Source: a virus
Taxonomy: Duplodnaviria > Caudoviricetes
Reading direction: 5' to 3' (one strand)
DNA length: 61,861 bases
Virus record (IMG/VR): IMGVR_UViG_3300006919_000055
Coordinates: 1-61,861 of that record
The notes beneath the pieces were generated by a model. The model was not told the DNA's origin and did not search any database. It saw nothing but the letters and a program-made list of their open reading frames with translations. Position numbers and translations under genes: made by a program. Positions 12,077-61,861 of the stretch are shown one piece after another; within the stretch, counting starts at the first letter, position 1; each line of letters starts with the position of its first letter.

Positions 12077-12104
12077 ATTATGATATACACTCACTATAAG
12101 TTAA

Positions 12105-12428
12105 TTAAGAAACATTTTCTCCTTCGTGATACTTTTTAGCTTCTTCATAGTCTGAATAATGACTTCTGGGCTGATCTTTATCAGATATACGAGGGGGCAT
12201 AAACTTAGTATAAAAGTCTCGCTGCTTCCGGCAGGTAAGATGTTCGTAGGTTTCAGTGCGTTGTTGAACGTGCTTGTCTAAAAATTCCTGCCTTTTTCTG
12301 CATCTTTCCGCTTCATCCTCGCGTTCAACCATCTCTGTGTACATTGCGAATAGCGCATTTACCCTGCGTTTATCTGGAGCTATCCACCAAGTTAATTTAA
12401 ATAAAATTTTAAATAAAAAGGTTCTCAT
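12105..12428 (-). CDS. hypothetical protein
   Basis: 107-aa ORF. Confidence 0.6.
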   Translation of the reverse strand: MRTFLFKILFKLTWWIAPDKRRVNALFAMYTEMVEREDEAERCRKRQEFLDKHVQQRTETYEHLTCRKQRDFYTKFMPPRISDKDQPRSHYSDYEEAKKYHEGENVS

Positions 12429-13167: not shown

Positions 13168-13670
13168 TGTAAGTTTAAAACTTCTTTTAAATTTTTCCAC
13201 GACTCCTCAATAGACATATCAGTACGGAGGACGTGCTTTGGATCACCTATTTCAAAATCTTCTACATGATATTCTTTTCTTAAATCTCTACTAGATTGTA
13301 AAAACACTTCTAAAACTTGATCTTGATTATTGTTTGCAAGCTCGTGTCTTAAATGTTCGTAAGGATTAACAAGGCACATGACTACATCAGTACCTTTCTT
13401 AACTGGGCGTCCTTCGATAAAATTACCATCTTCATTTTTATAATAAATTGCCGACCACTCCTTTCTTTCTCCTTTTTTATTAAGGTAAGTAGCTACAGCA
13501 TTAGCGTTTTTGATATTTTCTTCTCTACCTTTTCTGCTGTAATTCTTATTTGTAAACATCTCCCGAAACTCGTCTCCGTCAATAACAAACGGGGTTTGAA
13601 GATGCTCGGCTAATAGTTTTCCTAAAGAAGTTTTACCGGAAGCGGGTTGTCCATAAAGAACGTAAATCAT
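13161..13670 (-). CDS. cysC: adenylyl-sulfate kinase-like P-loop kinase
   Basis: GQPASGKTS, IDGDEFR, YSRKGREENIK. Confidence 0.65.
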   Translation of the reverse strand: MIYVLYGQPASGKTSLGKLLAEHLQTPFVIDGDEFREMFTNKNYSRKGREENIKNANAVATYLNKKGERKEWSAIYYKNEDGNFIEGRPVKKGTDVVMCLVNPYEHLRHELANNNQDQVLEVFLQSSRDLRKEYHVEDFEIGDPKHVLRTDMSIEESWKNLKEVLNLQC

Positions 13671-13671
13671 T

Positions 13672-13935
13672 TTAATCTTCCTCTATTCCGTAATTATAAC
13701 TCCCATTCCAGAGTCTTTCGAGAGTTTCGCCATTATCATTCACATCGTAAGCTTTTTTAATGTCACTAATATCCTCCACAAAGGTATAAAGATAATCTTC
13801 AATTAAATACTCTTCCTCTTCCATTTTAAAGTTCGCCTTTGTCTCTGGGTGAACCTTATTTAAATCTTCCGCAAAGCTTGTTATGTAATTTAAAAGTTTA
13901 GCTTTAAGGATTTTTTTCTTTTGACTTTTTTTCAT
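13672..13935 (-). CDS. hypothetical protein
   Basis: 87-aa ORF, ATGA overlap. Confidence 0.6.
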   Translation of the reverse strand: MKKSQKKKILKAKLLNYITSFAEDLNKVHPETKANFKMEEEEYLIEDYLYTFVEDISDIKKAYDVNDNGETLERLWNGSYNYGIEED

Positions 13936-14384
13936 TTGCTAATCCTCAAGCTGTCTGCATCCCTGTGAAAGGTGCTTATTTCTATGAATTCGACATCTCC
14001 GTCGTAGGCTATTAGTTGATGAGGTTGCCCTCTTTCTATGGACAAAGTATCTCCTTGGTTTAAAATACGAGTCATCTTTACTCCATCAAGAGTACAAATT
14101 GTATCTACTTGAAGCTGACCTTTGGTAATGTAAAAAGTCTCATGTTTCTCTAAATGAAAATGAAGAGAGGTATTATAGCCTTGATTTATTTGTAAAATTT
14201 TGCCGCAATAATCTTCTTCTTGATTATTAGCCATCCAAATTTCTCTGCCCCACTCTTTTTCAACTACTTTAGCTCTACAACTAACTCCGGCTTCTCCAGT
14301 GACTCCTGTGTATCCCTTATTACTCATAGCGCTTTTAACTTTGGTCTGTCCCTCTCTCCAGATTTGACCGCCGCTTTTTTTCAT
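13932..14384 (-). CDS. cupin protein (D-lyxose/mannose isomerase-like)
   Basis: VEKEWGREIW, YCGKIL, TSLHFHLEKHETFY, PHQL, EIST. Confidence 0.75.
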   Translation of the reverse strand: MKKSGGQIWREGQTKVKSAMSNKGYTGVTGEAGVSCRAKVVEKEWGREIWMANNQEEDYCGKILQINQGYNTSLHFHLEKHETFYITKGQLQVDTICTLDGVKMTRILNQGDTLSIERGQPHQLIAYDGDVEFIEISTFHRDADSLRISK

Positions 14385-14713
14385 TATTTTTTGTCTGTAT
14401 TTTTTAAATCAAAAAGTTCATCTTTTAATTTTAAGTTTTCTTTACTCCAGTAATCATTTATTACATCAACTTGTTTTTCAAGCATTGCAGAAAAATGCTT
14501 TTGTCCAAGATACATAGCTTTCCAGTGTTCTATCGCCATGCTTTTAGTCATGGAGTGAACTATGTGTTTTTGCGCTATCTCTTCACTCTTGTATATTGAG
14601 TGCTGTATGTCGTTGTCCCATTTATAATGGTAGTAGTAACCTGTGAACCACGTTCCAAAGCAAATCAAGCCAAGGAAAATAAAGAATCTTTCTTGTATTG
14701 TATAGTTTTTCAT
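14384..14713 (-). CDS. membrane-anchored hypothetical protein
   Basis: N-terminal hydrophobic helix. Confidence 0.6.
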   Translation of the reverse strand: MKNYTIQERFFIFLGLICFGTWFTGYYYHYKWDNDIQHSIYKSEEIAQKHIVHSMTKSMAIEHWKAMYLGQKHFSAMLEKQVDVINDYWSKENLKLKDELFDLKNTDKK

Positions 14714-14714
14714 T

Positions 14715-15095
14715 TTAACCAGCTAAAGCTCCTAATATCATAATTAAAATAAGCCCAAGAATTCCTAATCCAGAAATAACTAAAGTAGCTATTGCTGTGC
14801 TTATCTTTTTTACACCCTTGTCTTTAATAACGGAAATTGCAGCAACTACAGCACTCACAAACGCTCCAAAGCCACCAACAAGCATAATCATACCAAACTT
14901 CATGGTAGTTGCTTCATCAATCTGAGGTTCGATTCCAGTTGTTTGTGCGGCTTGTGCTGCGTGGAAGCCAAGTGATGCAGCCTTAAAAAAACCATAAAAA
15001 GCTATTAATGCTGATATTAAAGTTCCAACCAAAGACGCAATACCAATGGTACTGTGTTCAGTTGGTTTTTGTTGAGTAATGTTAGTATTTTCCAT
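14715..15095 (-). CDS. three-helix membrane protein (DUF4190-like)
   Basis: IGIASLVG start and three hydrophobic segments. Confidence 0.6.
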   Translation of the reverse strand: MENTNITQQKPTEHSTIGIASLVGTLISALIAFYGFFKAASLGFHAAQAAQTTGIEPQIDEATTMKFGMIMLVGGFGAFVSAVVAAISVIKDKGVKKISTAIATLVISGLGILGLILIMILGALAG

Positions 15096-23118: not shown

Positions 23119-24222
23119 TTAATTAAATTCAATCAAGTTGCTCCATGTTTGCGCTCGATGAAACCAAGTTTGACTCTTACTCCACTCAAATGCTCTTTCA
23201 ACTATCTTGTTTTTTTCTGGAATAGAATGATTTAAATATAAAAAATTATTTAAAAATTGGGCGAAAAATATATCTTCATCTGGTTCTGGCTCTATCAAGA
23301 CTCCTCGATTAGAAACGGTATCTTTTAGCGCAGAAAAATTAGTAGTTATTACCGAAGTTTTCATGGCTTGCATTTCTAAGGCTGTAATGCAATAAGTCTC
23401 TTCGTAATTAGTTGGATAAAGCCAATAATCACTTTTGGCTATCAAATTGTATAAAGAAGCTTGGTTTATTTGACCAATGAAATTAACACCCTGACTGCGT
23501 AAATTAGAAAATTCTACTTCAAACTCTTTAAACTGTTTAATTCCGTACTCAGGAGTACAAACGTTAAGGGTGGCGTCTGGCTTCTTTTCTTTTATCAAGT
23601 GCCATTTGGAAAGTAATAACCTTAATCCTCTTTCTGGGTGGGAGGAGTATATAAAACTTCGAGGCGCTTTAGTTAAATCTTTGGGTATTAAATCTGGATT
23701 AAAGCCGTTGCCTACAATTTTTACCTTAGAAGATAACTCCGGAAAAGATTGGCAAAATTTTTCTTTATGCCAATTAGTGAGGCAAATGATTGATGTAAGT
23801 TTACTGGATGATAGAAGCTCCATTGATCGCCCTGAAAGATCGCCCTTTGTCCACCAATCGTACCACCAGCCGCCAGTTGATTCAGTGTTGTGGATACATA
23901 AGAAAGATTTATCGTAATTAAATTTAGAAAACTCTTCTATAAAATGTATATAGCTAGCGCCAATAATGCATCTAAAATGTTCCTTGCTAAATTCCTTATG
24001 TAGCGTGTTATTTTTCGCGTAAAGAACTCCGTCGTACTCTCCCTCGATAACATCTCCACCAACTATTACCTTGTATCCCAACTTACTTAATTGTTGGGAT
24101 AAATTATAAATCGCGGTCTCTGTACCGCCCATCCCTCTTTTTGCGAAACTATCAGGATTCCAAGGGGCGCTTTGATAACCTGTGTAAAGTAAAATCTTTT
24201 TATTGTACAAAGACTTATGCAT
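23119..24222 (-). CDS. glycosyltransferase family 4 (GT-B)
   Basis: GMGGTE, YSSHPERGL, YPTNYEETYCITALEMQA. Confidence 0.85.
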   Translation of the reverse strand: MHKSLYNKKILLYTGYQSAPWNPDSFAKRGMGGTETAIYNLSQQLSKLGYKVIVGGDVIEGEYDGVLYAKNNTLHKEFSKEHFRCIIGASYIHFIEEFSKFNYDKSFLCIHNTESTGGWWYDWWTKGDLSGRSMELLSSSKLTSIICLTNWHKEKFCQSFPELSSKVKIVGNGFNPDLIPKDLTKAPRSFIYSSHPERGLRLLLSKWHLIKEKKPDATLNVCTPEYGIKQFKEFEVEFSNLRSQGVNFIGQINQASLYNLIAKSDYWLYPTNYEETYCITALEMQAMKTSVITTNFSALKDTVSNRGVLIEPEPDEDIFFAQFLNNFLYLNHSIPEKNKIVERAFEWSKSQTWFHRAQTWSNLIEFN

Positions 24223-24225: not shown

Positions 24226-24864
24226 TCATTTTTTAAATAATTTTAAAATTCTTGAAGCTCTCCTTCGAGCGTAAAACAAACGAGACATAACTGTGCCTAC
24301 AGGAATTTTTAACATTTTAGAAATTTGCTTATACTCTAAATTATCATAATGATAAAGGTGCAAAATGTTTCTGTCGTTATAATTTAACTTAGTCATAACT
24401 TTACGAACTAATTCTTTAGACTCATCGAAAAGTTCTGAGGTCTCGATTTTAAGGGAAGGTGAGGAGTCATCAACCGCGCTATGTTCGGGGTGAGTTTCCG
24501 CAAAAAACTTAATGTCATCAGAGTCTTGCGCGTCAGTAGATGTTAAGTTGCTACATTTATCTAAGTTTATTAATTTGTATTTAGTAGACTTTCTGTATTC
24601 GTCTAAAAAATTTCTTCGAGCTATACAATTAGCCCAAGTAGAAAATTTGCTCTCACCTTTAAATGTTTTAATTTTTTGCCAGCATTTAACTATAGTTTGA
24701 GAGTAAATTTCTTCTCCTAGGGCTTGATTACCTTTACAGTATTTAAAAATCCACATTTTTATGTAGTTACCCTCGCGAGAAAGTAGCTCATCAAATGCCT
24801 CATGGCTTCCCTTTTTACAAAGAGATAGTAGTTGCTTCTCTGTTTTTAGTGAAAAATTTATCAA
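24226..24864 (-). CDS. ECF-type sigma70 factor
   Basis: AFDELL, FKGESKFSTW..IARR, LEYKQISKMLKIPVGTVMSRLFYARR. Confidence 0.9.
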   Translation of the reverse strand: MINFSLKTEKQLLSLCKKGSHEAFDELLSREGNYIKMWIFKYCKGNQALGEEIYSQTIVKCWQKIKTFKGESKFSTWANCIARRNFLDEYRKSTKYKLINLDKCSNLTSTDAQDSDDIKFFAETHPEHSAVDDSSPSLKIETSELFDESKELVRKVMTKLNYNDRNILHLYHYDNLEYKQISKMLKIPVGTVMSRLFYARRRASRILKLFKK

Positions 24865-36451: not shown

Positions 36452-37192
36452 ATGGAACCTAAAAATTTAATAAATAAAGACTTAGATATTCAATCCCTTA
36501 AAGAAGAGTATCAAAAAGAAAAATTTATTGTTATAAAAAACTTTCTGCAAATTGAGGAGGCAGAAAAGTTAAGCACATATTATAACGAAAAAGTTCCCGC
36601 TGATTGGTGGTCGTGGATGTTTTTGCCTGATCCTGATTTGGGTCTAGAAAATTGGTCTACAAACGTATATCCCGAAGATGGAAGCAAAAGTTTGCAAAAA
36701 CTTATAGCCACTAAAAGAGATTTTTTAAATAAAATATACAAAGAAAACCGAGGTTTTTCTTATATATATCAAAGAGTTTTTTTTGGTAGTCATTACCCCA
36801 GTTGCCTCTGTGAAGAATGTGTTTTTCGTAAATCTTTCCTAGAAAACTCCCCTATGGTAGATTTTTTAAACGAAATCAGTGGATACGAAGATTTAAAACC
36901 CGGAGAGCTTTTTGCGAGCAGGTATGGGCTAGGAGATTATAACGGTCCCCACAACGATAACTCCAAGGGAAGAGTCACTATTGTCCTTAATTTATCTAAA
37001 AACTGGCTTCCTCAAGATGGGGGTTTGTTTTTTGGAATGGAAGAGGATTATTGTACCGTTAAACACGTAGAAGTACCCACATTCAATAGTTTGGTAATTT
37101 TTGATGTAAGCGATGGCGGTATGCCTCATTTAGTTAATCACGTTACAAACCCCGACAAAAAACGTACCGCAATCACCGGATGGTACGAATAA
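36452..37192 (+). CDS. 2OG-Fe(II) oxygenase (prolyl hydroxylase-like)
   Basis: PHND (HxD), GGL, PTFNSLVIF, PHLV, RTAITGWY. Confidence 0.85.
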   Translation: MEPKNLINKDLDIQSLKEEYQKEKFIVIKNFLQIEEAEKLSTYYNEKVPADWWSWMFLPDPDLGLENWSTNVYPEDGSKSLQKLIATKRDFLNKIYKENRGFSYIYQRVFFGSHYPSCLCEECVFRKSFLENSPMVDFLNEISGYEDLKPGELFASRYGLGDYNGPHNDNSKGRVTIVLNLSKNWLPQDGGLFFGMEEDYCTVKHVEVPTFNSLVIFDVSDGGMPHLVNHVTNPDKKRTAITGWYE

Positions 37193-37862: not shown

Positions 37863-38699
37863 GTGAAATATTTTATTGTCAGTGACTTCTTTATTGAAGA
37901 TTTCGTAGGCGGTGCAGCGCTTAATGACGAAGAAATTTTAAAGATATTTCTCAAAAACGGTCAGGACATAGAGAAAATCAAGAGTGAAGAAGTCTCTATA
38001 GACTTTCTAGAGAAAAATTCGCAAGCTTTTTATATTGTTTCTAATTTTCTTCATATACCGGAAGACTCGTTAGAAAAGCTAAAAACACTTAATTACCTCA
38101 TATATGCTCACGATTATAAATTCGTAAGGCACATGAACCCTGCGGCGTACGAAGATTTTAAGGTTCCCGAAGAAGACTTAATCTATGTAGATTTTTATCA
38201 AAAATCTAAAGCTGTTATTTGCCAGAGTAAGCTTCAAGAAAGAATACATAACGAAAACATCAAGGAGCTAAATACGATTAATTTTTCCGGAAATTTATGG
38301 TCAGAAGAGACTCTCTCGTTGCTTGAATCTCTTTCTCAAAAAGACAAAAAACCAATTGTTTCGGTAGTAAAGTCGAGGTGGCCTCAAAAAGGTGTCCCTG
38401 AAGCTATATCTTTTTGTATAGAAGAAAATTATGATTATGATCTCGTTTATGATGATGATTATTATAGGTTTTTATGGAAGCTATCCGAAAATCAAGCCCT
38501 AGCTTTTTACCCTTTAACACCTGAAACCTGCTCTAGAGTGACGTTAGAATGTAAAATGATGAACATGAAAGTGTTTATAACTAAACTTGTAGGCGCTTCC
38601 CATGAGCCTTGGTTTGAAAAGCACGGGGTTGAGTTAATAAATTTAATGAGAGAAAAGAAAAATGAAATTTACGATATTCTCCTTAAGATATCTTCCTAA
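37863..38699 (+). CDS. GT-B glycosyltransferase-like protein
   Basis: DFF..DFVGGA, HDYK, ETCSRVTLECK. Confidence 0.6.
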   Translation: MKYFIVSDFFIEDFVGGAALNDEEILKIFLKNGQDIEKIKSEEVSIDFLEKNSQAFYIVSNFLHIPEDSLEKLKTLNYLIYAHDYKFVRHMNPAAYEDFKVPEEDLIYVDFYQKSKAVICQSKLQERIHNENIKELNTINFSGNLWSEETLSLLESLSQKDKKPIVSVVKSRWPQKGVPEAISFCIEENYDYDLVYDDDYYRFLWKLSENQALAFYPLTPETCSRVTLECKMMNMKVFITKLVGASHEPWFEKHGVELINLMREKKNEIYDILLKISS

Positions 38700-38702
38700 T
38701 AA

Positions 38703-39515
38703 ATGACTGATTATAAATACATTTGTGGCAACGCTTTTAAAAGCATGTGCCAGTATTCGGTGGGCAAATACACAGACGCAAGAACACATGATTTTAATTT
38801 TTCAATTAAGGAAAATTTAGACAATGATACTGTATTTATCAAAACCGAATATGTAGGAAACTTTTTTCACTATGTAGATATACAAAAGCCATTTCATATA
38901 ATCACCCACAATTCAGATATTCCTATTGATGAAAGATTCTCTAAGTTTTTAGAGGACGAGCGCGTTCTTAGCTGGAAAGGTCAGAACATAAATATAGAAC
39001 ACGCCAAAGTTACACCTATCCCAATAGGACTAGCTAATCCAAAATGGTCACACGGTAATCCTGAAATTTTTACTAAAATTAGAAATGAATTAATAAATGG
39101 AGAAATAAAAAAAGATAAACTTTTTTACACCAACTTCGACATTTACACTAATTTACAAGAACGGCAAACTTGCTTAAGAGAAACAGGCTTTAAATTAGAG
39201 CCTAAATTAGATTTTGAATCGTATCTCCGAGAAGTAGCTCGGTCTTACTTTATAGTTTCTCCTGATGGGAATGGTATAGATTGCCATAAACACTGGGAAG
39301 CATTATATTTAAATTCCATTCCTATAGTTTCTAGTGGAATAAATGTTAATTATTTTAAAAATAAACAAATTCCTTTTCTCATCTTAGATTCATGGAGTGA
39401 ACTTAATAACATCAAACTATCACCAGAACTACACGAAAAAATATGGGGCAACTTCGACAGCGACACCCTATTATTTGATAATTATCTTATGAATTTACAA
39501 ATTGGAGAATTTTAA
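38703..39515 (+). CDS. exostosin (GT47)-like protein
   Basis: THNSD, PIPIGL, SPDGNGIDCHKHWEALYL..IPIV. Confidence 0.7.
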   Translation: MTDYKYICGNAFKSMCQYSVGKYTDARTHDFNFSIKENLDNDTVFIKTEYVGNFFHYVDIQKPFHIITHNSDIPIDERFSKFLEDERVLSWKGQNINIEHAKVTPIPIGLANPKWSHGNPEIFTKIRNELINGEIKKDKLFYTNFDIYTNLQERQTCLRETGFKLEPKLDFESYLREVARSYFIVSPDGNGIDCHKHWEALYLNSIPIVSSGINVNYFKNKQIPFLILDSWSELNNIKLSPELHEKIWGNFDSDTLLFDNYLMNLQIGEF

Positions 39516-40177
39516 TGATTAATGTAGATAAAATTATAGTTTTACATTATAAACCGCTCGTAAACAGAAAAACTCTTTTCAGCGCATTCTTAAAACAGCA
39601 TGACTTAGAGTGCAGTTGGATAGATAGAGAGCCAAAAAAAACTGATATAAAAAAATTATACAAATTTTCGGAAGAAGATTGGAAAAATAAAATTCAACCG
39701 GAAAACTTTGCTCCTCGTAAATTAAGAGACAGTGAAATATCTCTTTTATTTAAACATTATCTAGCTCTCAAAAAAATTGTTAGAGAAAAAATAAATACCA
39801 CCCTCTTGTTAGAGGACGACGTTTTGTTTACCGACAACTTTACTGAAATATTTAATAAAAATTTAGAATCTACCCCAGAAGATTGGGACTACATTTTTCC
39901 CGGTAGTGGATGTGATCTCAGAATACCTAAAGCTAAACTAGAAGAAGGAAAAATTGCATATTTAAAAAACCATCCCGCTACTAAATGCACTGACTCAATC
40001 ATAATAAAATTAGATGCAGCAAAAAAAATATTAAAAACCTTTAATTCTTGGACTTTACCTGCCGATTGGGAATACAATTATCAACTATTCAAACATGACA
40101 TGAACGTCTACTGGTGGGAACCTCCGGTCTTTGTTCAAGGTTCTCAAAGTGGAATATATAAATCTGCAATACAGTGA
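39515..40177 (+). CDS. glycosyltransferase family 25-like
   Basis: R.SEISL..KH, LLLEDDV, PEDWD, PADW, QGS. Confidence 0.75.
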   Translation: MINVDKIIVLHYKPLVNRKTLFSAFLKQHDLECSWIDREPKKTDIKKLYKFSEEDWKNKIQPENFAPRKLRDSEISLLFKHYLALKKIVREKINTTLLLEDDVLFTDNFTEIFNKNLESTPEDWDYIFPGSGCDLRIPKAKLEEGKIAYLKNHPATKCTDSIIIKLDAAKKILKTFNSWTLPADWEYNYQLFKHDMNVYWWEPPVFVQGSQSGIYKSAIQ

Positions 40178-41127
40178 AAATAGCTTTTTACTCTCCTCAC
40201 TTATGCTTGCGAGGTACTACCGTCGCAATGTATGACTATGCCTTTTACAATCAAACCCTATTAGGTAACGAATCGTGCATAATATATTCTAGCCAAGACC
40301 ATCGCAATAGCGATAGCGCTATTGAAAAATTTAACGACTCTTTCAGTGAAATATACGCTTTAGAAAATGAAAAAAAGTTAGACGAAGTATTAACTCAAAG
40401 TAAAGCTGATGCAGTTTATATTTTAAAGGCTGGCAAAAATGATGAACGCCAATCTTCAGTTTGTAAAAATTTAATACATTGCACGGGACTAGAGTCTGAA
40501 CCGCACGGACATGTATACGCTTATGTTTCAAAATGGTTAAGTGAAAAATGTTCACAAGGCAAACTTCCTTTTGTACCGCATATAGTCGATCTACCTAAAC
40601 AGGACGGAAATCTGAGAAATGATCTAGGTATACCTGATTCAGCTTTGGTCTTTGGCAGGAATGGAGGGAGAGACACTTGGAGTCTACCGTTTGTCAATCA
40701 TGTAATATCTGAGGTACTTAAAAGAAGAGACGATATTTATTTTATATTTCAGAATACTGAAAAGTTCATTGATCACGAAAGAGTATTTTTCATAGAAAGT
40801 ACCGCCAGAATGCATTATAAAACTAAATTTATAAACACCTGCGATGCTATGATTCATGCCCGACTAGAAGGTGAAAGCTTCGGATTAGCTTGCGGAGAGT
40901 TTTCTTTAAGAAACAAGCCTGTAATAACTTGGTCTGGTTCTAACGAAAAAAATCATATAGAAACTTTAGGCGACAAAGCTTTTCTTTATGAAAACTCAAT
41001 AGACTTACTAAGTATATTTTTAGAATTCAAAAAGCAACCAGCGAAAGATTGGAATTGTTATAAAGATTTTTCTCCTGAAAAAGTCATGAAAAAATTTAAT
41101 GAAATTTTCTTAAAGCAAGATGCATAG
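40174..41127 (+). CDS. GT-B glycosyltransferase
   Basis: RGTTVAMYDYA, FGRNGG, DAMIHAR.EGESFGLACGEF. Confidence 0.8.
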   Translation: MKIAFYSPHLCLRGTTVAMYDYAFYNQTLLGNESCIIYSSQDHRNSDSAIEKFNDSFSEIYALENEKKLDEVLTQSKADAVYILKAGKNDERQSSVCKNLIHCTGLESEPHGHVYAYVSKWLSEKCSQGKLPFVPHIVDLPKQDGNLRNDLGIPDSALVFGRNGGRDTWSLPFVNHVISEVLKRRDDIYFIFQNTEKFIDHERVFFIESTARMHYKTKFINTCDAMIHARLEGESFGLACGEFSLRNKPVITWSGSNEKNHIETLGDKAFLYENSIDLLSIFLEFKKQPAKDWNCYKDFSPEKVMKKFNEIFLKQDA

Positions 41128-41791
41128 AATTAAATCACTAGCTGGCTTTGGTTTTCAGCCACAATATATATTAGATATAGGAGCCAATGTGGGGAGCTGG
41201 ACCGATCAAATGGCTTTTTATTTTCCGGATTCTCATTTTTTGATGGTAGAGGCCAACTTAAAACACAGTAACGCTTTACAAAGTATTTGCGATAAACACC
41301 CCAAGGCAGAATTCTGCATTGAGCTGCTAAGTGAAACTTCTAAAGATTGTAATTACCATACCTTAAAAAACGCTTCCGCCGATAATCTCGAAACTGGCAA
41401 CTCTATATTTAAAGAAAAAACTAAACACTATTCTGATTCCAATATAGAAATTAAAATATTAAAATCTAAAACCTTGGACAATCTTCTAGAAGAAAAAAAT
41501 ATTAATAAAGTAGATTTAATAAAATTAGATGTTCAAGGCGCTGAAATATCAGTGTTAAAAGGAGCTTCCGACACACTTAAAAATGCCACATTTTGCCTAC
41601 TAGAAGTTCAGCTTCAGCAATGGAACGAAGAGGCTCCACTGTTCTCGGAGGTTATTGAGTTTATGGATGAAAATGATTTTTCAGTTTTTGATTTTATAGA
41701 TAAAAATTTAGTTTCAGACTACACTGTTTCTATTGATGTTTTATTTAAAAAGAAAAATAATAAATTTACCTGTCCGAACATTTCTAAATGA
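41120..41791 (+). CDS. FkbM family methyltransferase
   Basis: LDIGANVG, VEAN, TLD, IKLDVQGAEISVLKGA. Confidence 0.9.
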   Translation: MHRIKSLAGFGFQPQYILDIGANVGSWTDQMAFYFPDSHFLMVEANLKHSNALQSICDKHPKAEFCIELLSETSKDCNYHTLKNASADNLETGNSIFKEKTKHYSDSNIEIKILKSKTLDNLLEEKNINKVDLIKLDVQGAEISVLKGASDTLKNATFCLLEVQLQQWNEEAPLFSEVIEFMDENDFSVFDFIDKNLVSDYTVSIDVLFKKKNNKFTCPNISK

Positions 41792-42531
41792 GTTTTATTT
41801 ATAATCATATAAAAATAAATGAAGAAAAATTAAAAGTGGGAGTCTATTGTCCCGCTTTCGATTGTGATCCTTTATACATAGAATATAATAAAAAAGTTTT
41901 TAATCATTTTGGAATTAATATTAACTATGTTACATCTGGGTCAAGACATGGGGAAATATTAAACACTCTGTCTCGTGAAGAAAACGTTGATTATCTTTGT
42001 TTTGTTGATGTGGATGCTATACCTTTGTCTCCTAATGTTCTGGAAACCCTAATAGGTAGAATCTATAATAAAAATGCAATAATAGGAATAGAACAAACCA
42101 GTAATAATCATAGGCATGAAGCTGACAAACTAATCGCCCTTTCTCACGCTATCAAAAGAGGAGAAGATATATCTAAACATATAAGCCCCGCCAACAACGA
42201 TAAAAACTTAACTAATCATGAAGAAACATATGCTGGCCCCGCTTTCTTCCTAATAGCTAAAGAAACCTATAAAACCCTAGGAGAGCCATCTTATTTAGAA
42301 ACCTACAGAAGCGACTGTGGGGAAGAGCTTTCTTACGTAGCTCGCGAAAAAGGGTTCGAAGTAAAATATATTCACTTCTCTCATTGCGTTCAGCCTCAAT
42401 GGCATCTAAAAGAAAATATTAAATTTGGTATAGGAAGCTCGTATGAAGATTTAGTTTATCATAATTTTCAATCGAGAGCGTCAACTTCACTAGACATGTT
42501 TATAGAAAAATGTAAAGAAGTATTAAATTAA
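41788..42531 (+). CDS. GT-A glycosyltransferase-like protein
   Basis: FVDVDAIP (DxD), YAGPAF, SDCGEE, YHNFQ. Confidence 0.6.
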   Translation: MSFIYNHIKINEEKLKVGVYCPAFDCDPLYIEYNKKVFNHFGININYVTSGSRHGEILNTLSREENVDYLCFVDVDAIPLSPNVLETLIGRIYNKNAIIGIEQTSNNHRHEADKLIALSHAIKRGEDISKHISPANNDKNLTNHEETYAGPAFFLIAKETYKTLGEPSYLETYRSDCGEELSYVAREKGFEVKYIHFSHCVQPQWHLKENIKFGIGSSYEDLVYHNFQSRASTSLDMFIEKCKEVLN

Positions 42532-42533
42532 AA

Positions 42534-43439
42534 ATGAGTAAATGTTTAGTAACAGGAGGGTGCGGCTTCATCGGCAGTAACTTAGTTGATGAGTTAATTA
42601 AACTTGGAAATGAGGTTCATGTTATAGATGACCTCTCGGCTTCTTGTAATGATGATTTTTACTTTAATTCAAAGGCTTCATGGTCAAAAATTAGCGTCTG
42701 TAATTCGGAGAAGGTAGAAAATGATTTCAAGCAATTTAAACCGGATTACGTTTTTCATCTTGCCGCCTATTCAAGAATCCAAGTGGCTATGAAAAACCCT
42801 TTGTCTACCTGCGATGTTAATTTTACAGCTACAGCCTCATTACTTCAGCTATGCGCTAAATATAAAGTAAAAAGATTTGTGCTTTCCTCAACATCTTCTA
42901 TATATGGGTTAAAAAATCAAATACCCCTCTCAGAAGATATGCCCGCTGACTGTTTAAATATTTACTCAACAACTAAATATAGCGCAGAACAGTTATGTAA
43001 AATGTATTATAAATTATTTAACGTTCCGACTGTTATATTTAGATACTTTAATGTTTATGGACCCCGCGAGCCACTAAAAGGGGTTTACGCTCCGGTAGTG
43101 GGCCTTTTCTTGAAACAATTTAAAGAAGGTAAACCAATGACTATTGTTGGAGATGGCTCTCAAACTAGAGATTTTACTCACGTAAAAGATGTGGTTAAAG
43201 CCAATATTGCAGCCGTTAAAAATGATAAAGAAGAGATATTTGGTCAAGTTTTTAATGTTGGAACGGGCGTTAATTACTCAGTTTTAGACTTAGCTAAAAA
43301 CATAGGAGGAGATTATCAATTTATAGATAACCGAGAGGGAGAAGCTAAAGATACGCTTGCAGACATTTCTAAAATTAAAAGTCTTTTAAATTGGGAACCC
43401 TGCGGAAACATTATGAAATACATCAATTCTAACAAATGA
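42534..43439 (+). CDS. NAD-dependent nucleotide-sugar epimerase/dehydratase
   Basis: VTGGCGFIGS, HLAA, YSTTK (YxxxK), RYFNVYGP, GDGSQTRDFTHV. Confidence 0.9.
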   Translation: MSKCLVTGGCGFIGSNLVDELIKLGNEVHVIDDLSASCNDDFYFNSKASWSKISVCNSEKVENDFKQFKPDYVFHLAAYSRIQVAMKNPLSTCDVNFTATASLLQLCAKYKVKRFVLSSTSSIYGLKNQIPLSEDMPADCLNIYSTTKYSAEQLCKMYYKLFNVPTVIFRYFNVYGPREPLKGVYAPVVGLFLKQFKEGKPMTIVGDGSQTRDFTHVKDVVKANIAAVKNDKEEIFGQVFNVGTGVNYSVLDLAKNIGGDYQFIDNREGEAKDTLADISKIKSLLNWEPCGNIMKYINSNK

Positions 43440-44524
43440 GTAAAAAAATTTTAATAACTGGCATCTTAGGGCAAGATGGGGCAAACATGGCAGAACTTTT
43501 GCTTTCTAAAGCAAATAATTTTGAAATATATGGAATGATGCGTCGTTCTGCTGTTCCTAATTTTAAAAATATTGAAAATATTAAAAACCACCCCAGCTTT
43601 AATATAGTAAATGGTGATTTAACTGATGAAGTAAGTATAAATGAATTAGTAAAGAAAATTCAACCAGATTACTTCATCAACTTTGCGGCAAATAGTTTTG
43701 TTGGATGTTCTTGGGATATGCCCATGCAAGTTTTTGATGTTAATGCTATGGGTGTAATACGAGCCTTAGAGGCTATAAGAAAATTTAAACCGGATTGCAG
43801 GTTTTATAGCGCAGGAAGTAGTGAGGAATTTGGTGACGTTGATTTTGCGCCGCAAAACTTAACCCACCCTATGAAGCCCAGAAGCCCTTACGGAGCTTCA
43901 AAATGCGCCGCTAGGCATATCGTAAAAGTATACAGAGAATCTTACGATTTGTACGCAATACATGGAGTTTTATTTAATCATGAAGGAACGAAGCGCGGAG
44001 AAGAATTTGTAACCCGTAAAATATCGAAAGGAGTTGCTCAAATTCACAATCAATTACGCAGTATTAACGCTTGGAAATCTAATGGGTCCGACGATTTTCC
44101 GCCTCAAGTTACTCCCATTGAGCTAGGATACTTAGACTCTAAAAGAGATTGGAGTGACAGTATGGACTTCATGGAGGGTATTTGGCTAATGCTAAATCAA
44201 CAAGAGCCTAAAGAATATCTTTTAGCAAGCGGAGAAACACACTCTATAAGAGAGTTCATTGAAAAAGCTTTTAATATTGCTAATATTACAGGGCAGTGGG
44301 AAGGCGAAGGTCAAGAGGAAAAATTTATACATAATTATAAAGACAAAAAAATTGTTTTAGTAAAAATTAATCCTAAATATTTTAGGCCCGCCGAGGTTAA
44401 TTTACTCCTTGGAGACCCGACTGACGCCATACAAAAATTAGGCTGGAAACCCCAGAAAAGCTTTGACAAATTAGTAGAAAGCATGGTAAAGTTGGACCTC
44501 GATGAAATCCAAAAAGCGTCCTAA
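43436..44524 (+). CDS. gmd: GDP-mannose 4,6-dehydratase
   Basis: ITGILGQDG, SFVGCS, AGSSEEFG, PRSPYGASK, FNHE..RGEEFVTRKI, KRDW, FRPAEV. Confidence 0.92.
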   Translation: MSKKILITGILGQDGANMAELLLSKANNFEIYGMMRRSAVPNFKNIENIKNHPSFNIVNGDLTDEVSINELVKKIQPDYFINFAANSFVGCSWDMPMQVFDVNAMGVIRALEAIRKFKPDCRFYSAGSSEEFGDVDFAPQNLTHPMKPRSPYGASKCAARHIVKVYRESYDLYAIHGVLFNHEGTKRGEEFVTRKISKGVAQIHNQLRSINAWKSNGSDDFPPQVTPIELGYLDSKRDWSDSMDFMEGIWLMLNQQEPKEYLLASGETHSIREFIEKAFNIANITGQWEGEGQEEKFIHNYKDKKIVLVKINPKYFRPAEVNLLLGDPTDAIQKLGWKPQKSFDKLVESMVKLDLDEIQKAS

Positions 44525-44945: not shown

Positions 44946-46014
44946 CGAATCTGTATTAACTCCAGAAGAGCAAATAGAAGCTTATCTAGAGAATAACAAA
45001 GGAGATCATTATAACTTTGAAGAAGAAAGAAGTTATGCAGTGTCCAGTGGAAGTCTATTACTAGATATTGAAATGGGCGGAGGTATAGGACCCGGCATTA
45101 TAAGAGCCTCCGGAATAACTGAGGGAGGTAAAACTTCATGCGCCTTGTCTTTTGCAAAGAACTTCCAAAAACAGGAGAATAGCAAAGTTATATACATAAA
45201 GTCTGAAGGTCGTTTGACGGAAGAAATGATTTCCAGAGCTGGCCTCGACACCGATAAAAAGAAATGGTTTGTTTATAAAAGTAATACCTACGAATCCGTC
45301 ATCAACTTATTAAGAGAGCTTGTCCACAATAATGATACTAAAAGAAAATATATGTTCATTATTGATTCTATGGATTCCTTAGTGCCTAAAGCTGATTTAG
45401 AAAAATCGCCCGAAGAAGCTAATAAAGTTGCTGGAGGAGCGCTTCTAAGCTCCGACTTCCTTAGAAAAATGGCTTTATCAATGACATCTAAAGGTCATGT
45501 ATGTTATTTAATCTCTCAAGTTCGATCTAAGGTTTCTATAAATCCTTATGAAAAGTCTGACGCTAGAGTCACTAACGCTTCAGGAGGTAATGCTCTTTTG
45601 CATTATAGCGATTGGATTCTAGAGTTCCAAGAAAGGTATAAAGCCGATATCATTTTTGACAAAGATGGAAAAACTCCAATAGGCCACTGGTGCAAGGTTA
45701 TATTCAAGAAAACCCCTAATGAAAAAACTGGAGTGATAGTTAAATATCCCATCAAGTACGGCAGAAAAGAAGGTAAAAGTATATGGGTAGAAGCCGAAGT
45801 AGCTGATATGATGTTACAATTTGATATGGCTAAGAAAAGTGGCGCATGGGTATCCATATCTGAAGAGCTTATAGAGGAAGTAAAAAAAGAAACGGGAGAA
45901 GAAATGAAAAACCAACATCAAGGTTTTGATAATCTTAGAAAGTACTTTGAAGAAAATGATAAGATAGGTAAATATATTTTTAACAAATTTAGAGAAGTCC
46001 TAAAAAAGTCATGA
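44926..46014 (+). CDS. recA: RecA/UvsX-like recombinase
   Basis: SSGSLLLD..MGGG, GITEGGKTS, IIDS, SQVR, GGNAL.HY; start likely ATG 44926. Confidence 0.9.
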   Translation: MKRKKSSESVLTPEEQIEAYLENNKGDHYNFEEERSYAVSSGSLLLDIEMGGGIGPGIIRASGITEGGKTSCALSFAKNFQKQENSKVIYIKSEGRLTEEMISRAGLDTDKKKWFVYKSNTYESVINLLRELVHNNDTKRKYMFIIDSMDSLVPKADLEKSPEEANKVAGGALLSSDFLRKMALSMTSKGHVCYLISQVRSKVSINPYEKSDARVTNASGGNALLHYSDWILEFQERYKADIIFDKDGKTPIGHWCKVIFKKTPNEKTGVIVKYPIKYGRKEGKSIWVEAEVADMMLQFDMAKKSGAWVSISEELIEEVKKETGEEMKNQHQGFDNLRKYFEENDKIGKYIFNKFREVLKKS

Positions 46015-46427
46015 GACTTTATAATATATACGGGAAACTACAAAAGAAAAATGTTAGACCATATCTAATAGATTGGGACGGTAAATCTCGCTCTAAAATA
46101 CAATTTTCAGTAAAGCAATTTCTTAAGACCTTTTGGAAAACCCAAATGGTTTATGAAGAATTTCCCGTTTATGGCACTAAAATGAAAGTAGACATTCTTA
46201 ATGCTACAAAAAAAATAGCCATAGAGGTAAACGGAGGACAACATAATTCTTTTAATAAATTTTTTCATGCAAATTCCAGAGCCAATTACCTTAAATCTAT
46301 AAAAAGAGACATGGAAAAAAGCGAATGGCTAGAAAAAAATGATTTCACATTAGTTGAAATAGAAGAGGCCGAAGTTAAAAATATCTCAAAAGAGTTTTTT
46401 AAAAGTAAATTTGGTATAACATTATGA
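46011..46427 (+). CDS. Vsr/DUF559-like endonuclease
   Basis: EEFP, VDI, IAIEVNGGQH, RD..K..W. Confidence 0.75.
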   Translation: MRLYNIYGKLQKKNVRPYLIDWDGKSRSKIQFSVKQFLKTFWKTQMVYEEFPVYGTKMKVDILNATKKIAIEVNGGQHNSFNKFFHANSRANYLKSIKRDMEKSEWLEKNDFTLVEIEEAEVKNISKEFFKSKFGITL

Positions 46428-47719
46428 TTGATTGCATATATGTAATAGCTTTAGAAGAAAACCTCGTTAAAAAAAGAGAGGAAATTATAGAAAGAGTAAA
46501 TTCTCTTAAAATAGACTCTCAGCAATTAGTGTTGTTTAAAGCTGTTAACGGCTTTGATCCGAAGGTTGATTTTCAGTGGAGTTTATTTAACTGGAAGTTG
46601 GAAAATTCAGATAACTCTTGGTGGAATAGAGACATGAAACCCGGAGAAATTGGCTGCGCTTTGTCTCATTTATCAATCTGGAAACATGCATATTCTTTAA
46701 ATTATAAAAAAATTATTATTTTAGAAGAAGACTTTAAACCTATAAAGCAAATCGATCCAAATTTAATAAATGAACTTGATCAGAATGATTGGGACTTTTG
46801 TTACTTAGGCAGGAATAAGATAAAAGAAGACCAAAGTGAAGTATCTAATAATTTAGTGATTCCCGGATACTCTTACAATCTACACGCTTACATGCTATCG
46901 GATTCTGGGATTAAAAATTTATTACAATTTTCTTTTGAAAATAAAATAATGCCAGTTGATGAGTTTATTCCCGCTACTTTCTGCGATCACCCTAGACAAG
47001 ATTTAAATTTTATTTGGAAAGACACCAAAGCATTTTCATTTAAAGAGGACTACATAGGTCAATCTAGCACCAACACGGTAAGCTCTACAGAAAATTTAGA
47101 AAAAATAGTAAGTCCTCCCTCACAAATAAAAAACATTTCCAACTGGGATGAATGGAAAAGTAGGTATATAAATCCTGCCATGCTAGCAAAAGATTACGAC
47201 TTAATCGTAGAAGAGCCTGTCGCAGATGTAGCTCACTTCCCAATATTTACTAATAAATTTTGCGAGGAATTAATAGAAATGGCCGAAGAGGCTAATAAAT
47301 GGACTGAAGGTAGACATGACTATTACCCCACTCACGATGTATTGCTTTCGTCTTTAGGGTTTGATGAAATTTATAGAAAAGTCTTGTCGGAATTTCTTTA
47401 CCCATTAGCAGCTCACTACTACAAATTAGACGGGGGAAGATGGTTAAAATTAAATGCCGAGAATTTTATTATTAAATATTCTATGGAGAAGCAAGGATTT
47501 TTGTCTTTACATCATGACCAAAGCGTGTTAAGCTCGGTGCTTACTTTGAATGAGGATTTTGAAGGAGGTGGAACCTTCTTTTATCGCCAACAAAAAACCA
47601 TAATTGGTAAAACTGGCGAAATGTCTCTCCACCCCGGAATGATTTCCCACAGGCACGGAGCCAAACCCATCTCTAGCGGAACACGCTATGTCTTGGTGTC
47701 GTTTTTAAATTTACCTTAA
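46424..47719 (+). CDS. fusion of a GT25 (COLGALT-like) glycosyltransferase and a PLOD-like 2OG-Fe(II) lysyl hydroxylase
   Basis: N-half: GEIGCALSH, LEED, WDFCYLGR, YSYNLHAY, PVDEFIP. C-half: FPIFT..FCEELIE, LHHDQS, FEGGG, HPG..SHRHG, GTRY.LVSF. Confidence 0.85.
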   Translation: MIDCIYVIALEENLVKKREEIIERVNSLKIDSQQLVLFKAVNGFDPKVDFQWSLFNWKLENSDNSWWNRDMKPGEIGCALSHLSIWKHAYSLNYKKIIILEEDFKPIKQIDPNLINELDQNDWDFCYLGRNKIKEDQSEVSNNLVIPGYSYNLHAYMLSDSGIKNLLQFSFENKIMPVDEFIPATFCDHPRQDLNFIWKDTKAFSFKEDYIGQSSTNTVSSTENLEKIVSPPSQIKNISNWDEWKSRYINPAMLAKDYDLIVEEPVADVAHFPIFTNKFCEELIEMAEEANKWTEGRHDYYPTHDVLLSSLGFDEIYRKVLSEFLYPLAAHYYKLDGGRWLKLNAENFIIKYSMEKQGFLSLHHDQSVLSSVLTLNEDFEGGGTFFYRQQKTIIGKTGEMSLHPGMISHRHGAKPISSGTRYVLVSFLNLP

Positions 47720-50162: not shown

Positions 50163-50768
50163 ATGAGAACTTGCTTTATAGATTCCACTAAATTAGGAGA
50201 AGAGCGCTCTTTCTGCACTTATTACGGAGGCACAGGAGTTTTTTCTAACGAAGAAGTAGATAAAATAAAAAAAACCGGAGATTCACTCACAAACGAGACA
50301 GCTAAAACTTTCGGACAAGGTGATCAAGGCGAAAATAGAAAAGGCTCAGTTGCTTGGCTCCCTTTAAATGAATCAAATAAATGGATTTACTCTAGACTTT
50401 TATCTATAACCGAAGAAGCAAATAACAGTCTTTGGAAATTTGACTTAACTGGGTTTTGGGAAGATTGTCAATACACCACTTATGAAGCTTCATCAAAAAA
50501 AGATGGAGACTTTTATGATTATCATTTAGATATAGACGGCTCGTATGGCGTTCAGCGTAAAATAAGCATTGTCGTTCAACTTTCAGATCAAGAAGACTAC
50601 GAGGGAGGAGAACTTGAATTAAAAACTAGCAAAAACTCGTACGTTGCGGATAAATCAAAAGGCTCTATTTTGCTTTTTCCCTCTTTCTGTTTACATAAAG
50701 TACATCCCGTTACCAAAGGCAAAAGGAACTCCTTAGTATTGTGGGTCTCCGGAATGCCATTTAAATAA
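50163..50768 (+). CDS. 2OG-Fe(II) oxygenase (PKHD/P4H-like)
   Basis: YDYHLD, RKISIVVQLS, YEGGEL, FPSF.LHKVHPVTKG.RNSLV.W. Confidence 0.9.
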   Translation: MRTCFIDSTKLGEERSFCTYYGGTGVFSNEEVDKIKKTGDSLTNETAKTFGQGDQGENRKGSVAWLPLNESNKWIYSRLLSITEEANNSLWKFDLTGFWEDCQYTTYEASSKKDGDFYDYHLDIDGSYGVQRKISIVVQLSDQEDYEGGELELKTSKNSYVADKSKGSILLFPSFCLHKVHPVTKGKRNSLVLWVSGMPFK

Positions 50769-60635: not shown

Positions 60636-61385
60636 ATGAGGAAAAAGAAAGCAGAATTACCCGAACTAGGCGTCACACGTAATTCCGGTGGTTTGATTAA
60701 CGACGGATCAGTCGATTACCATTTCACAGAAGACGGAATGATTGATTGGCGTAAAATGGTTAAGGATTGCTATCTTTACCCAAACCCCAGCAAAAATCTC
60801 ACTGAAACAGATATATCTAAGCTAGATGATCGTGACTTGTGCATTCTCTTAGGAGGCTTGAAAGAATTAGCTCAAATCAGAGGCTACACCAGCGTAGACT
60901 ACGAGGTGGTCGCCCCTTCTCCAGATTGTGTTATTGCTACGTGCAAAATTACTTGGACTCCTAATTATGAAACCGAAAATAAAGAGGTAACTTTTTCTGC
61001 AATCGGTGATTCATCGCTCAACAACACTTCTGGTATTGGAGGAGTTTACTATTTAGCGTCAACCGCAGAAAATAGAGCGTTCGCTCGATGCATTCGTAGC
61101 TTTTTGAGGATTAACGTTGTCTCTAGAGAAGAACTCGCGAAAGGCTTCTTGAAGGCTAAAACTGAAAGCTCCTCTTCAACAGTGAGTGCTGGCTCATCAT
61201 CTCCCGCCAGCCTACTAGAAGCTACAATGAAGAAGAAGGGGCTATCTTTCTCTCAACTAAAATCTAAGTTAGTTGATGAAGGCGTTTCTGGAGCAGAAGA
61301 AATGAGTTCTGTAAACGATATTCCAAACGATAAAATCTTCGAGTTGATCGATAGAATTAAAAAGGCTAAAGCAAAAGCTGCTTAA
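60636..61385 (+). CDS. Rad52/Sak-like single-strand annealing protein
   Basis: GLKELA, FSAIGD, TAENRAFARCIR..L. Confidence 0.55.
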   Translation: MRKKKAELPELGVTRNSGGLINDGSVDYHFTEDGMIDWRKMVKDCYLYPNPSKNLTETDISKLDDRDLCILLGGLKELAQIRGYTSVDYEVVAPSPDCVIATCKITWTPNYETENKEVTFSAIGDSSLNNTSGIGGVYYLASTAENRAFARCIRSFLRINVVSREELAKGFLKAKTESSSSTVSAGSSSPASLLEATMKKKGLSFSQLKSKLVDEGVSGAEEMSSVNDIPNDKIFELIDRIKKAKAKAA

Positions 61386-61421
61386 AATTCTTTTCGCTAA
61401 ACTTTAATTATAAGGTATAAA

Positions 61422-61861
61422 ATGTCTACTAAAACACGCAGAACCCGTGTCTCTAAAAATAAAAACTCCTTTGTTATTTCTCACCCTCATATTGAATATT
61501 TGAGAAGACTTATGTGCAAGGGGCTTTTGGAGAATTACTCGAATGGACGAGATTTTGTTAATAACATAAACGCGGATGCTCGAAAATTAGGAGCTAAAAA
61601 CAAGCAAATTGGAGACATTACTGAAGCTATAACTGAAGTAAAGTTTAGAGTCATAGATGGATTAACTGAAATATATCATAGCTCTGACACCCCTCAAGAA
61701 ATTAAGGAAAAGTACAAAATACAGCTATCCGGAGACGATAATGGAATTGATTATGTAATAGTCGATAATACTGGTGAGCTTTGCGCTGTTCAAATAAAAT
61801 TTTATATAGCTAAAAATCTTACGAAAAATCAAATTAAAGGATTTTTTGACGAAGCTCAATA
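61422..61861 (+). CDS. partial ORF with Mrr-cat-like restriction endonuclease domain
   Basis: Open to the window end; G...E, DNGID and AVQIKF (PD-QxK) motifs. Confidence 0.6.
   Translation, partial: MSTKTRRTRVSKNKNSFVISHPHIEYLRRLMCKGLLENYSNGRDFVNNINADARKLGAKNKQIGDITEAITEVKFRVIDGLTEIYHSSDTPQEIKEKYKIQLSGDDNGIDYVIVDNTGELCAVQIKFYIAKNLTKNQIKGFFDEAQ

Follow-up and report, generated by a model that had tools for sequence, protein, structure and literature searches.

A lysyl hydroxylase-glycosyltransferase fusion in an uncultured marine phage and its putative role in modifying a collagen-like tail fibre

Hydroxylysine (Hyl) O-glycosylation is taken as a hallmark of animal collagen; beyond animals, it is known from mimivirus. 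A gene at 46424..47719 of the IMG/VR virus record IMGVR_UViG_3300006919_000055 raises the question of whether tailed phages also use this chemistry, and on which protein. Its product joins a glycosyltransferase (GT) domain of family GT25 to a lysyl hydroxylase (LH) domain. The window analysed here is the whole contig of 61,861 bases and represents that arm of a larger, uncultured marine phage genome which serves replication and metabolism. The initial annotation of this DNA had read the gene as a COLGALT-like GT25 fused to a PLOD-like lysyl hydroxylase, and had gone on to propose Hyl O-glycosylation of collagen-like or Lys-rich virion fibres by a phage. We consider it probable that the open reading frame (ORF) encodes a bifunctional enzyme which modifies the phage's own collagen-like tail fibre. 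The ORF and its parts are as follows.

46424..47719, plus strand: GT25-LH fusion ORF of 431 aa (ORF list, Pfam, PDB matches and AlphaFold2 (AF2) model)
46424..47068, plus strand: GT25 domain resembling the COLGALT catalytic domain, residues 1-215 (E101-E102-D103, G74/G77/C78 and D179-E180)
47069..47116, plus strand: Ser/Thr-rich linker, residues 216-231, predicted to be disordered (predicted local distance difference test, pLDDT, <50); it starts past the end of the COLGALT1 alignment
47117..47716, plus strand: lysyl hydroxylase domain of the PLOD/L230 type, dependent on 2-oxoglutarate (2OG) and Fe(II), residues 232-431 (Y352, H363, D365, H411 and R421)

The ATG shares 4 nt with the stop codon of the upstream gene, and the following gene begins 2 nt past the stop of the fusion. 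The translation contains all the motifs on which the initial annotation was based, namely GEIGCALSH, ILEEDF, DWDFCYLGR, YSYNLHAY, MPVDEFIPATFCDHP and FPIFTNKFCEELIE, and in the oxygenase half LHHDQS, FEGGGTFF, LHPGMISHRHG and SGTRYVLVSF; the COLGALT1 motifs quoted there (GELGCFLSH, FEDD, WDLIYVGR, YSYWTLAY and LPVDEFLP) were reproduced in the HMMER alignment to PDB COLGALT1 chains. Pfam PF01755 (GT25) matched residues 5-182 with 58 bits (cut-off 24), covering profile positions 4-199 of 199, and an OGFOD2-like module matched residues 257-334 with 34.4 bits (cut-off 31). The AF2 model, built from a 24-member family alignment, has a mean pLDDT of 89.1 and consists of two domains separated by the disordered linker 216-231.

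Both halves found their best matches among collagen enzymes. When the PDB was searched with phmmer, collagen enzymes were the only strong matches: the C-half matched the LH domain of mimivirus L230 best (E 6.9e-27) and human LH3 at E 2.3e-24, and the N-half matched the catalytic domain of human COLGALT1 at E ~6e-19, compared to E 0.13-0.5 for bacterial GT25 enzymes. A family profile run against the PDB scored 144.7 bits on L230 and 142.7 bits on LH3, versus 16.1 bits on P3H1, 14.8 bits on prolyl 4-hydroxylase (P4H) and at most 16 bits on PiuC; on the GT side the scores were 119.5 bits for COLGALT1, 36.6 bits for mimivirus R655 and 27-31.3 bits for bacterial GT25. Foldseek, run with the AF2 model, placed the C-half on the L230 LH domain (TM score 0.87, root-mean-square deviation 1.6 Å, 33% identity) and the N-half on COLGALT1 (E ~3e-15, 25-26% identity), with a bacterial GT25 beta-1,4-galactosyltransferase at E 1e-8 and 17% identity and R655 at E 2e-8. 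As judged by these scores, the similarity of both halves to collagen enzymes is far above chance, and the assignment made in the initial annotation is upheld by sequence, profile and fold.

The same family could also be read as a GT25 galactosyltransferase for lipopolysaccharide (LPS) or host glycans joined to a generic oxygenase, with an auxiliary metabolic or host-takeover role unrelated to collagen. Public members carry the name 'GR25 family glycosyltransferase involved in LPS biosynthesis' or 'hypothetical', the Pfam family name of GT25 is 'LPS biosynthesis protein', and the window has numerous sugar-nucleotide and GT genes. Among solved structures, however, the domains did not group with LPS GT25 and generic oxygenases: the profile separates COLGALT1 from the best bacterial GT25 by 119.5 versus 31.3 bits, and LH-type enzymes (143-145 bits) from the others (15-16 bits at most). 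Gene order, described below, also argues against this explanation, which we regard as very unlikely.

Conservation of the catalytic residues was measured in an alignment of 24 diverse family members, and motif patterns were counted over 83 cores. Both predicted catalytic centres are intact and kept across the family. In the LH domain, Y352, H363, D365 and H411 align with Y656, H667, D669 and H719 of LH3, and R421, within GTRY, aligns with GTRY of LH3 and GKRY of L230 at the position of the 2-oxoglutarate-binding Arg. This Arg, ten residues after the distal His, we take to be R729 of LH3. Residues H363, D365, H411, R421, Y352 and E101 are invariant in the 24 members, and E102, D103, D179 and E180 are each at least 90% conserved. 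The four aligned LH3 residues Y656, H667, D669 and H719 are all reported to be essential (PMC11897130). For COLGALT1 it has been reported that E435 and D437 chelate Mn2+ and D436 binds the ribose of uridine diphosphate (UDP) (PMC12003778, PMC12987934), that uridine is held by G408, G411 and C412 (PMC12003778), and that D522 serves as catalytic base while the neighbouring E523 holds the Hyl epsilon-amine, the two forming a 'DE' motif (PMC12987934). By alignment, E435/D436/D437 correspond to the metal and ribose motif E101-E102-D103, with both Mn-chelating positions kept and the middle Asp replaced by Glu. GEIGC at residues 74-78 aligns with GELGC of COLGALT1, which puts G74/G77/C78 in the position of the uridine pocket, and the pattern GE[IVL]GC occurs in 76/83 cores. 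PVDEF aligns with PVDEF, so that D179-E180 occupy the positions of the catalytic base and the Hyl-amine anchor. The initial annotation had listed as a caveat that the acidic motif is EED and not EDD. It is indeed EED; this is the family norm (78/83 cores by pattern) and affects the non-chelating position only.

The phage protein was compared with the closest known systems. We take L230 to be PLOD-like, that is, to combine a PLOD-type GT with an LH, and it was compared through a 235-residue LH-domain construct only. L230 is likewise a virus-encoded fusion of an LH with a glycosyltransferase, and its LH domain (PDB 6ax6, 9nev) is the best match of the C-half; however, it is a giant-virus protein, whereas the phage protein pairs the LH with a COLGALT-type GT25 and is without the PLOD GT or accessory domain. 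L230 has been described as a bifunctional lysyl hydroxylase/glucosyltransferase whose substrate is a collagen-like protein of the virus itself (title of Luther et al. 2011, as cited in PMC8968730). The catalytic domain of COLGALT1/GLT25D1 (PDB 9evj, 9u7h, 8zgc) has the metal motif positions, GxxGC, the base Asp, the neighbouring Glu and Y494 (aligned with Y151) in common with the phage GT25. COLGALT1 also has an N-terminal non-catalytic GT domain, but Pfam found no second GT-A domain in the phage protein, which matched the C-terminal catalytic domain of COLGALT1 only (chain residues ~313-564). Moreover, COLGALT1 pairs with LH3 as a non-covalent complex (8zgc), while the phage GT25 is fused to its hydroxylase. 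Human LH3/PLOD3 has a homologous LH domain in which the equivalents of Y656, H667, D669 and H719 are kept, and its pathway logic, Lys to Hyl to glycosyl-Hyl at Y of Gly-X-Y, is common to the scheme proposed here for the phage. It differs in its GT-AC-LH architecture, as Pfam found neither GT_PLOD (PF25342) nor accessory domains in the window protein, and in that the second transferase of this phage is a separately encoded GT-B (GT4-type) enzyme. The bacterial LPS and lipooligosaccharide GT25 beta-1,4-galactosyltransferases (PDB 8xlz, 8xc8) belong to the same CAZy/Pfam family GT25 but are far more distant, and the phage family is without LPS context and linked to collagen-like genes.

The phage family is large: a word-seeded search returned 110 clusters, 3739 representative clusters were found at E <=1e-3, and at least 413 IMG/VR contigs carry a member. 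Searches with the window protein and with that of S-CAM9 listed proteins from phages and metagenomes only, and a Protein Atlas search with the N-half gave viral GT25 clusters only. Linkage was counted in the best 80 of the 413 IMG/VR loci, taking a collagen-like ORF as one with at least 20 Gly-X-Y triplets and a locus as evaluable when it had at least 5 kb on the side tested. A collagen-like ORF lay upstream of the fusion in 34 of 41 evaluable loci, at a median gap of 1724 nt (54 loci); as an internal control, none of the 53 loci with at least 5 kb downstream had one on that side, and this asymmetry also argues against an LPS role. Runs of at least 8 Gly-X-Y triplets were found in 52/80 loci, every substantive run being on the same strand as the fusion and upstream of it; the sole minus-strand runs, two of 8 triplets (L018 and L078), fall within a plus-strand collagen ORF. 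Counted by cluster, adjacency was seen in 11/16 evaluable clusters at 60% identity, 7/9 at 50% and 15/21 at 70%, and PF01391 was present in 4/4 large records searched. The collagen-like ORFs reach 2446 aa and 683 triplets.

The composition of these repeats also bears on the substrate. Over 12,693 triplets from 60 distinct ORFs, Lys is the commonest residue at Y (23.8%, with Thr 23.1% and Gln 19.2%) and its median at X is 0; Pro makes up 24% of X and ~2% of Y. Animal LH and COLGALT are reported to act on Lys at Y followed by Gly (PMC13382579, PMC12987934). Cultured phages share this layout: in the Synechococcus phages S-CAM9 and S-PRM1 and in the roseobacter phage CRP-6, a collagen-like ORF lies upstream of the fusion. 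Its annotation is tail fibre in two of them (S-CAM9 and CRP-6) and hypothetical in the third (S-PRM1). In S-CAM9, first a small ORF and then two 2OG oxygenases separate the 'tail fiber protein' (59 triplets) from the fusion, with S-PRM1 alike; in CRP-6, gp60, a 'putative tail fiber protein' with 99 triplets, is ahead of gp58. With copies that adjoin collagen genes, the window protein shares 40-47% identity along its whole length. Since relatives adjoin giant lysine-rich collagen-like tail-fibre genes, these phages probably modify their own fibres, and the proposal of Hyl O-glycosylation on collagen-like fibres gains from the Lys-at-Y fibre genes that relatives have upstream of the fusion.

Further genes were observed between or beside the collagen and fusion genes of relatives. 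In ~60-kb contigs a DUF6445 (PF20043) gene lies between the two (L003, 8403-8954), and in other metagenome proteins (P0105-P0107) PF20043 is fused to an LH-like C-terminal domain 43-48% identical to the C-half of the window protein; the PF20043 protein may be another collagen-linked oxygenase. Additional transferases found there include a 442-aa GT2 (L036, 6459-7784) and a 780-aa protein (L066, 1978-4317) distantly similar to the window GT1 at 30405. The glycan probably differs between lineages.

The fusion occurs in three architectures, two of them counted over 83 fusion loci:

GT25-LH: 28/83 loci, including the window
GT4-GT25-LH: 52/83 loci
GT25-GT_PLOD-LH: the 3 cultured phages (PF25342 at 7.5e-47 in S-CAM9 and 4.5e-28 in CRP-6; S-PRM1 assigned by domain spacing only)

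The last of these unites all three animal-type domain kinds in a single chain, and an S-CAM9-seeded search gave 948 clusters at E <=1e-8, of which all 120 listed carry PF25342 and PF01755. Two further genes of the window belong with the fusion:

23119..24222, minus strand: GT4-type (GT-B) glycosyltransferase, 367 aa (Pfam Glyco_trans_1_4, 1.1e-11)
50163..50768, plus strand: 2OG-Fe(II) oxygenase of the PKHD/P4H type, 201 aa (Pfam 2OG-FeII_Oxy_3, 1.6e-14; PKHD-type hydroxylases in the PDB, 2e-9)

The GT4 is homologous to the N-terminal ~300 aa of relatives of 777-818 aa (L003, E 5e-47 and 32% identity; L049, E 1e-56 and 37% identity) and is a separate neighbouring gene in 16 loci. By this sequence criterion, it is provably linked to GT25-LH as a Rosetta-stone partner. 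Homologues of the 50163 oxygenase are present in 47/83 fusion loci, and among the loci listed, all 13 with such a homologue have it adjoining the fusion or the collagen gene. The initial annotation had suggested that two P4H-like oxygenases and other GTs could extend the modification; among the GTs the one at 23119..24222 is linked to the cassette, being fused to GT25-LH in relatives, and of the two oxygenases the one at 50163 is linked and the other is not. The latter (36452..37192) was rejected as a cassette member, its homologue being found only in the syntenic contig L002.

The data show homology, intact catalytic residues, purifying selection, the gene fusion with GT4 and linkage in gene order to collagen-like genes; from homology and gene context we infer what the enzymes do and in which sequence, which sugar is used and which protein is modified in this phage. 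The LH domain would convert Y-position Lys of Gly-X-Lys repeats to 5-hydroxylysine on the unfolded fibre chain, using Fe(II) and 2-oxoglutarate. The GT25 domain would then transfer a hexose from a UDP-sugar onto the Hyl hydroxyl, in an inverting, Mn-dependent reaction with D179 as base; analogy with COLGALT1 suggests that the sugar is Gal. A further sugar is probably added to the glycan by the GT4 at 23119..24222. The target of the PKHD-type oxygenase at 50163 is probably a different residue of the fibre, perhaps the proline that is abundant at X. Other transferases could glycosylate the abundant Y-position Thr. In this phage the cassette genes are spread over the replication arm, and their products would work in trans.

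To what extent does the window's own lineage fit this scheme? The contig carries rIIA/B, sigma factors, ribonucleotide reductase (RNR), a RecA-like gene, DnaB, primase, Pol III alpha, dUTPase and dCMP deaminase, is rich in GT and sugar-nucleotide genes, and has no structural genes among its annotated genes; the fusion gene sits between the RecA-like gene and DnaB. No cultured relative was found: a megablast search of 12 kb against phages gave no match, and the best Pol III alpha matches were 25-32% identical. Contigs of 158-161 kb are on record with a protein 99-100% identical, and, because of these contigs and the completeness estimates (CheckV-type) of relatives, we put the genome at ~160 kb. 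The relative L002/G006, 74% identical and syntenic with window 36452-61382, carries a collagen-like tail-fibre ORF of at least 1453 aa (Pfam Collagen 1e-44; phrog_5073, tail fibre, 8e-77) on the opposite strand, ~2.5 kb past the homologue of window gene 60636..61382 and ~16 kb from its fusion gene. The 127 triplets of this ORF have Lys in 29% of the Y positions and Pro in 65% of the X positions; after it come two ORFs, of 396 aa and 205 aa, and then a GT2 gene. A near-identical contig, L097, diverges from the window at 61384, where a helicase and restriction-like insert begins; past this island it has the GT2 (77% identity) and a 201-aa ORF (65% identity) of the G006 fibre operon before the contig ends. 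It is likely, from this synteny, that the substrate in the window phage is the product of a fibre gene just past the right end of the contig, as in G006.

The L097 island (10788-15004) encodes a 1095-aa protein that combines Mrr_cat_2 with ResIII/helicase, and also holds a 303-aa ORF whose match to a sulfotransferase is faint. The last, partial ORF of the window (61384-61861) is also Mrr_cat_2, and the island is missing from G006.

Four records of the same backbone (51-55% identity) were compared as well. None of the four has the fusion and none has PF01391, and in the fusion-less loci examined the 2OG oxygenase between primase and nuclease is missing too. In G010 and G012, for which the upstream region was compared, the RecA-like gene, the 138-aa gene and DnaB are found with no fusion gene. 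Mobility of the fusion gene by a homing endonuclease was considered and rejected, as the 138-aa HNH-like neighbour (46011..46427) is also present in the fusion-less relatives.

Several observations weigh against fibre modification by this enzyme. A Gly-X-Y scan in every frame found no collagen-like gene in the whole 61.9-kb contig, the longest run being 4 consecutive triplets, as the initial annotation had already noted in stating that no Gly-X-Y substrate is in the window. The phage's own fibre gene was not reached, since L097 stops ~1 kb short of it, and scans of viral and metagenome collections with the last ORF returned the same contig or contigs of at most 4.8 kb. No adjacent collagen gene was found in 7/41 loci and 5/16 clusters, including the window's own; of five non-adjacent records searched whole, one (G006) has PF01391, the other four being fragments estimated to be 13-44% complete. 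The co-variation test within the lineage rests on fragments estimated to be 16-37% complete, and because all same-backbone records are fragments this evidence is supportive, not decisive. The abundant Pro of the repeats is at X and not at Y, so that the 50163 oxygenase cannot copy the animal collagen P4H, which acts on Y-position Pro. Finally, two residues of the COLGALT1 acceptor cleft that matter for activity are not conserved. This cleft is reported to contain K470 and a 'YW' motif, Y494/W495, in which W495A abolishes activity (PMC12987934); W495 is replaced by N152 and K470 by N131. Asn, Cys or Thr at the W495 position is family-wide, and neither the N152 nor the N131 state is peculiar to this copy. 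As these equivalents are not kept, acceptor or donor handling may differ from COLGALT1, and for the same reason we treated the protein as COLGALT-like and not as an orthologue.

Could the copy in the window be a decaying or non-functional remnant, left after the gene parted from the fibre locus? The decoupling from a collagen gene and the unconserved W495 and K470 equivalents would fit such a remnant. However, the catalytic residues are all intact, and the changed cleft residues are those of the family. Compared to the 98% identical relative L001, the fusion gene has 26 synonymous and 9 non-synonymous differences (dN/dS ~0.08) and is under purifying selection, and the open frame is maintained at 74-100% identity across many contigs, two of them 158-161 kb. 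Decay is thus highly unlikely.

A different explanation is that the lysyl hydroxylase and GT are active here on a non-collagen target, such as another virion protein, a replication protein or a host protein. It is proposed because the gene is no longer at the fibre locus but between the RecA-like gene and DnaB, in a replication module without a collagen gene in 61.9 kb; the 5/16 clusters without an adjacent collagen gene agree with it, and LH3 and GLT25D1 are reported to act on a non-collagen domain of FGL1 (cited in PMC12003778). On the other hand, the syntenic G006 has its Lys-at-Y collagen-like fibre ~16 kb off, the fusion, the oxygenase and the collagen gene are jointly present or jointly absent in the same backbone, and the full-length identity of 40-47% is to copies beside collagen genes. 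We consider a non-collagen target unlikely. The position among replication genes would also suit a DNA hypermodification enzyme that hydroxylates a base and then glycosylates it, with RecA-like, DnaB, primase, Pol III alpha, RNR, dCMP deaminase and dUTPase genes as neighbours and a PHROGs label of 'DNA endonuclease' on some related oxygenase families. No TET/JBP or AlkB chain appeared, at the thresholds used, in the PDB sequence and profile matches or among the 35 fold-search matches listed, and the family adjoins tail-fibre genes in most lineages. DNA as the substrate is therefore extremely improbable, and modification of the tail fibre remains the reading that we prefer.

The GT25-LH fusion in tailed phages was not found in the literature searched, although the modification of collagen lysine by viruses and animals is already known. 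That search covered freely accessible full-text literature and gave no description of this chemistry in phages. Among viruses, mimivirus is known from reviews to modify collagen (PMC8968730); what P4H does in phages is said to remain 'cryptic' (PMC9301287), and the COLGALT1 structure paper reports BLAST matches of the catalytic domain in giant viruses and bacteria (PMC12003778). The closest proposal is that of Iyer et al. 2010 (PMC2938197), who predicted dioxygenase modification of bacterial collagen-like and tail-collar proteins. As in our scheme, prokaryotic 2OG dioxygenases would act on co-encoded collagen-like proteins, and tandem arrays in cyanophages are described; the enzymes, however, are of the beta-hydroxylase, phytanoyl-CoA-hydroxylase and JmjC families and paired with sulfotransferases. 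The cyanophage arrays are ascribed there to secondary metabolism, and the passages on these systems contain no PLOD-type LH, GT25 or link to phage fibres.

A broader reading, which we put forward as speculative and rather doubtful, is that ocean tailed phages carry a complete animal-type collagen-maturation toolkit and that Hyl glycosylation of fibres is widespread and ancient. The toolkit would comprise a PLOD-type LH, a COLGALT-type GT25, a second transferase (GT4-type or PLOD-GT-type) and a P4H-like oxygenase, and would exist in at least 3 fusion architectures and hundreds to thousands of sequence clusters; in the window's lineage it would have been taken apart and work in trans from the replication arm. 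Phages or their hosts would then be a possible domain reservoir, from which, and not from animals, giant viruses and early eukaryotes drew their LH and GT25 domains. If phages do glycosylate Hyl, this chemistry would be present at large scale in the prokaryotic virosphere. It would offer an explanation for at least some of the many unexplained genes of marine phages, labelled 2OG-Fe(II) oxygenase or 'P4H', that are listed as auxiliary metabolic genes, and would bear on the origin of the metazoan collagen-modification enzymes. A compact, soluble, single-chain LH and GT could also be of use where bacteria are to produce recombinant collagens with such modifications. With three cultured phage-host pairs (S-CAM9, S-PRM1 and CRP-6), the claim is open to direct testing.

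The window has a glycan-building block at 37863-44524 on the plus strand, the order of which is kept in L002 at 58-76% identity. It consists of an ORF of no known family, an RXYLT1_C-like gene, a standalone GT25 (39515..40177), a second ORF of no family, an FkbM methyltransferase, a third ORF of no family, an NAD epimerase/reductase and a GDP-mannose 4,6-dehydratase. The standalone GT25 matches COLGALT1 weakly (E 0.003). The product of this block may be a glycan with deoxyhexose or methyl groups, perhaps destined for the same fibre.

Homologues of rIIA and rIIB and two genes resembling sigma factors are located on the minus strand at 2438-5595, 6095-6976 and 24226-24864, and co-occur in this phage with Pol III alpha, DnaB and the RecA-like gene. 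Two minus-strand ORFs, one cysteine-dioxygenase-like (13932-14384; phrog_7851, 2.6e-28) and one labelled ferredoxin (10072-10719; phrog_3704, 3.7e-40), are possible auxiliary metabolic genes; a homologue of the former is found in L100 within the replication module. A 337-aa ORF of no known family (8353-9366, minus strand) contains a ~79-aa module 64% identical to a CRP-6 ORF two genes downstream of gp58, and has best matches in 16/83 fusion loci. In two contigs Pol III alpha is divided into two ORFs, of 592 aa and 389 or 398 aa (L102, 3303-6275; L103, 3266-6265), which match consecutive parts of the 854-aa Pol III alpha of the window.

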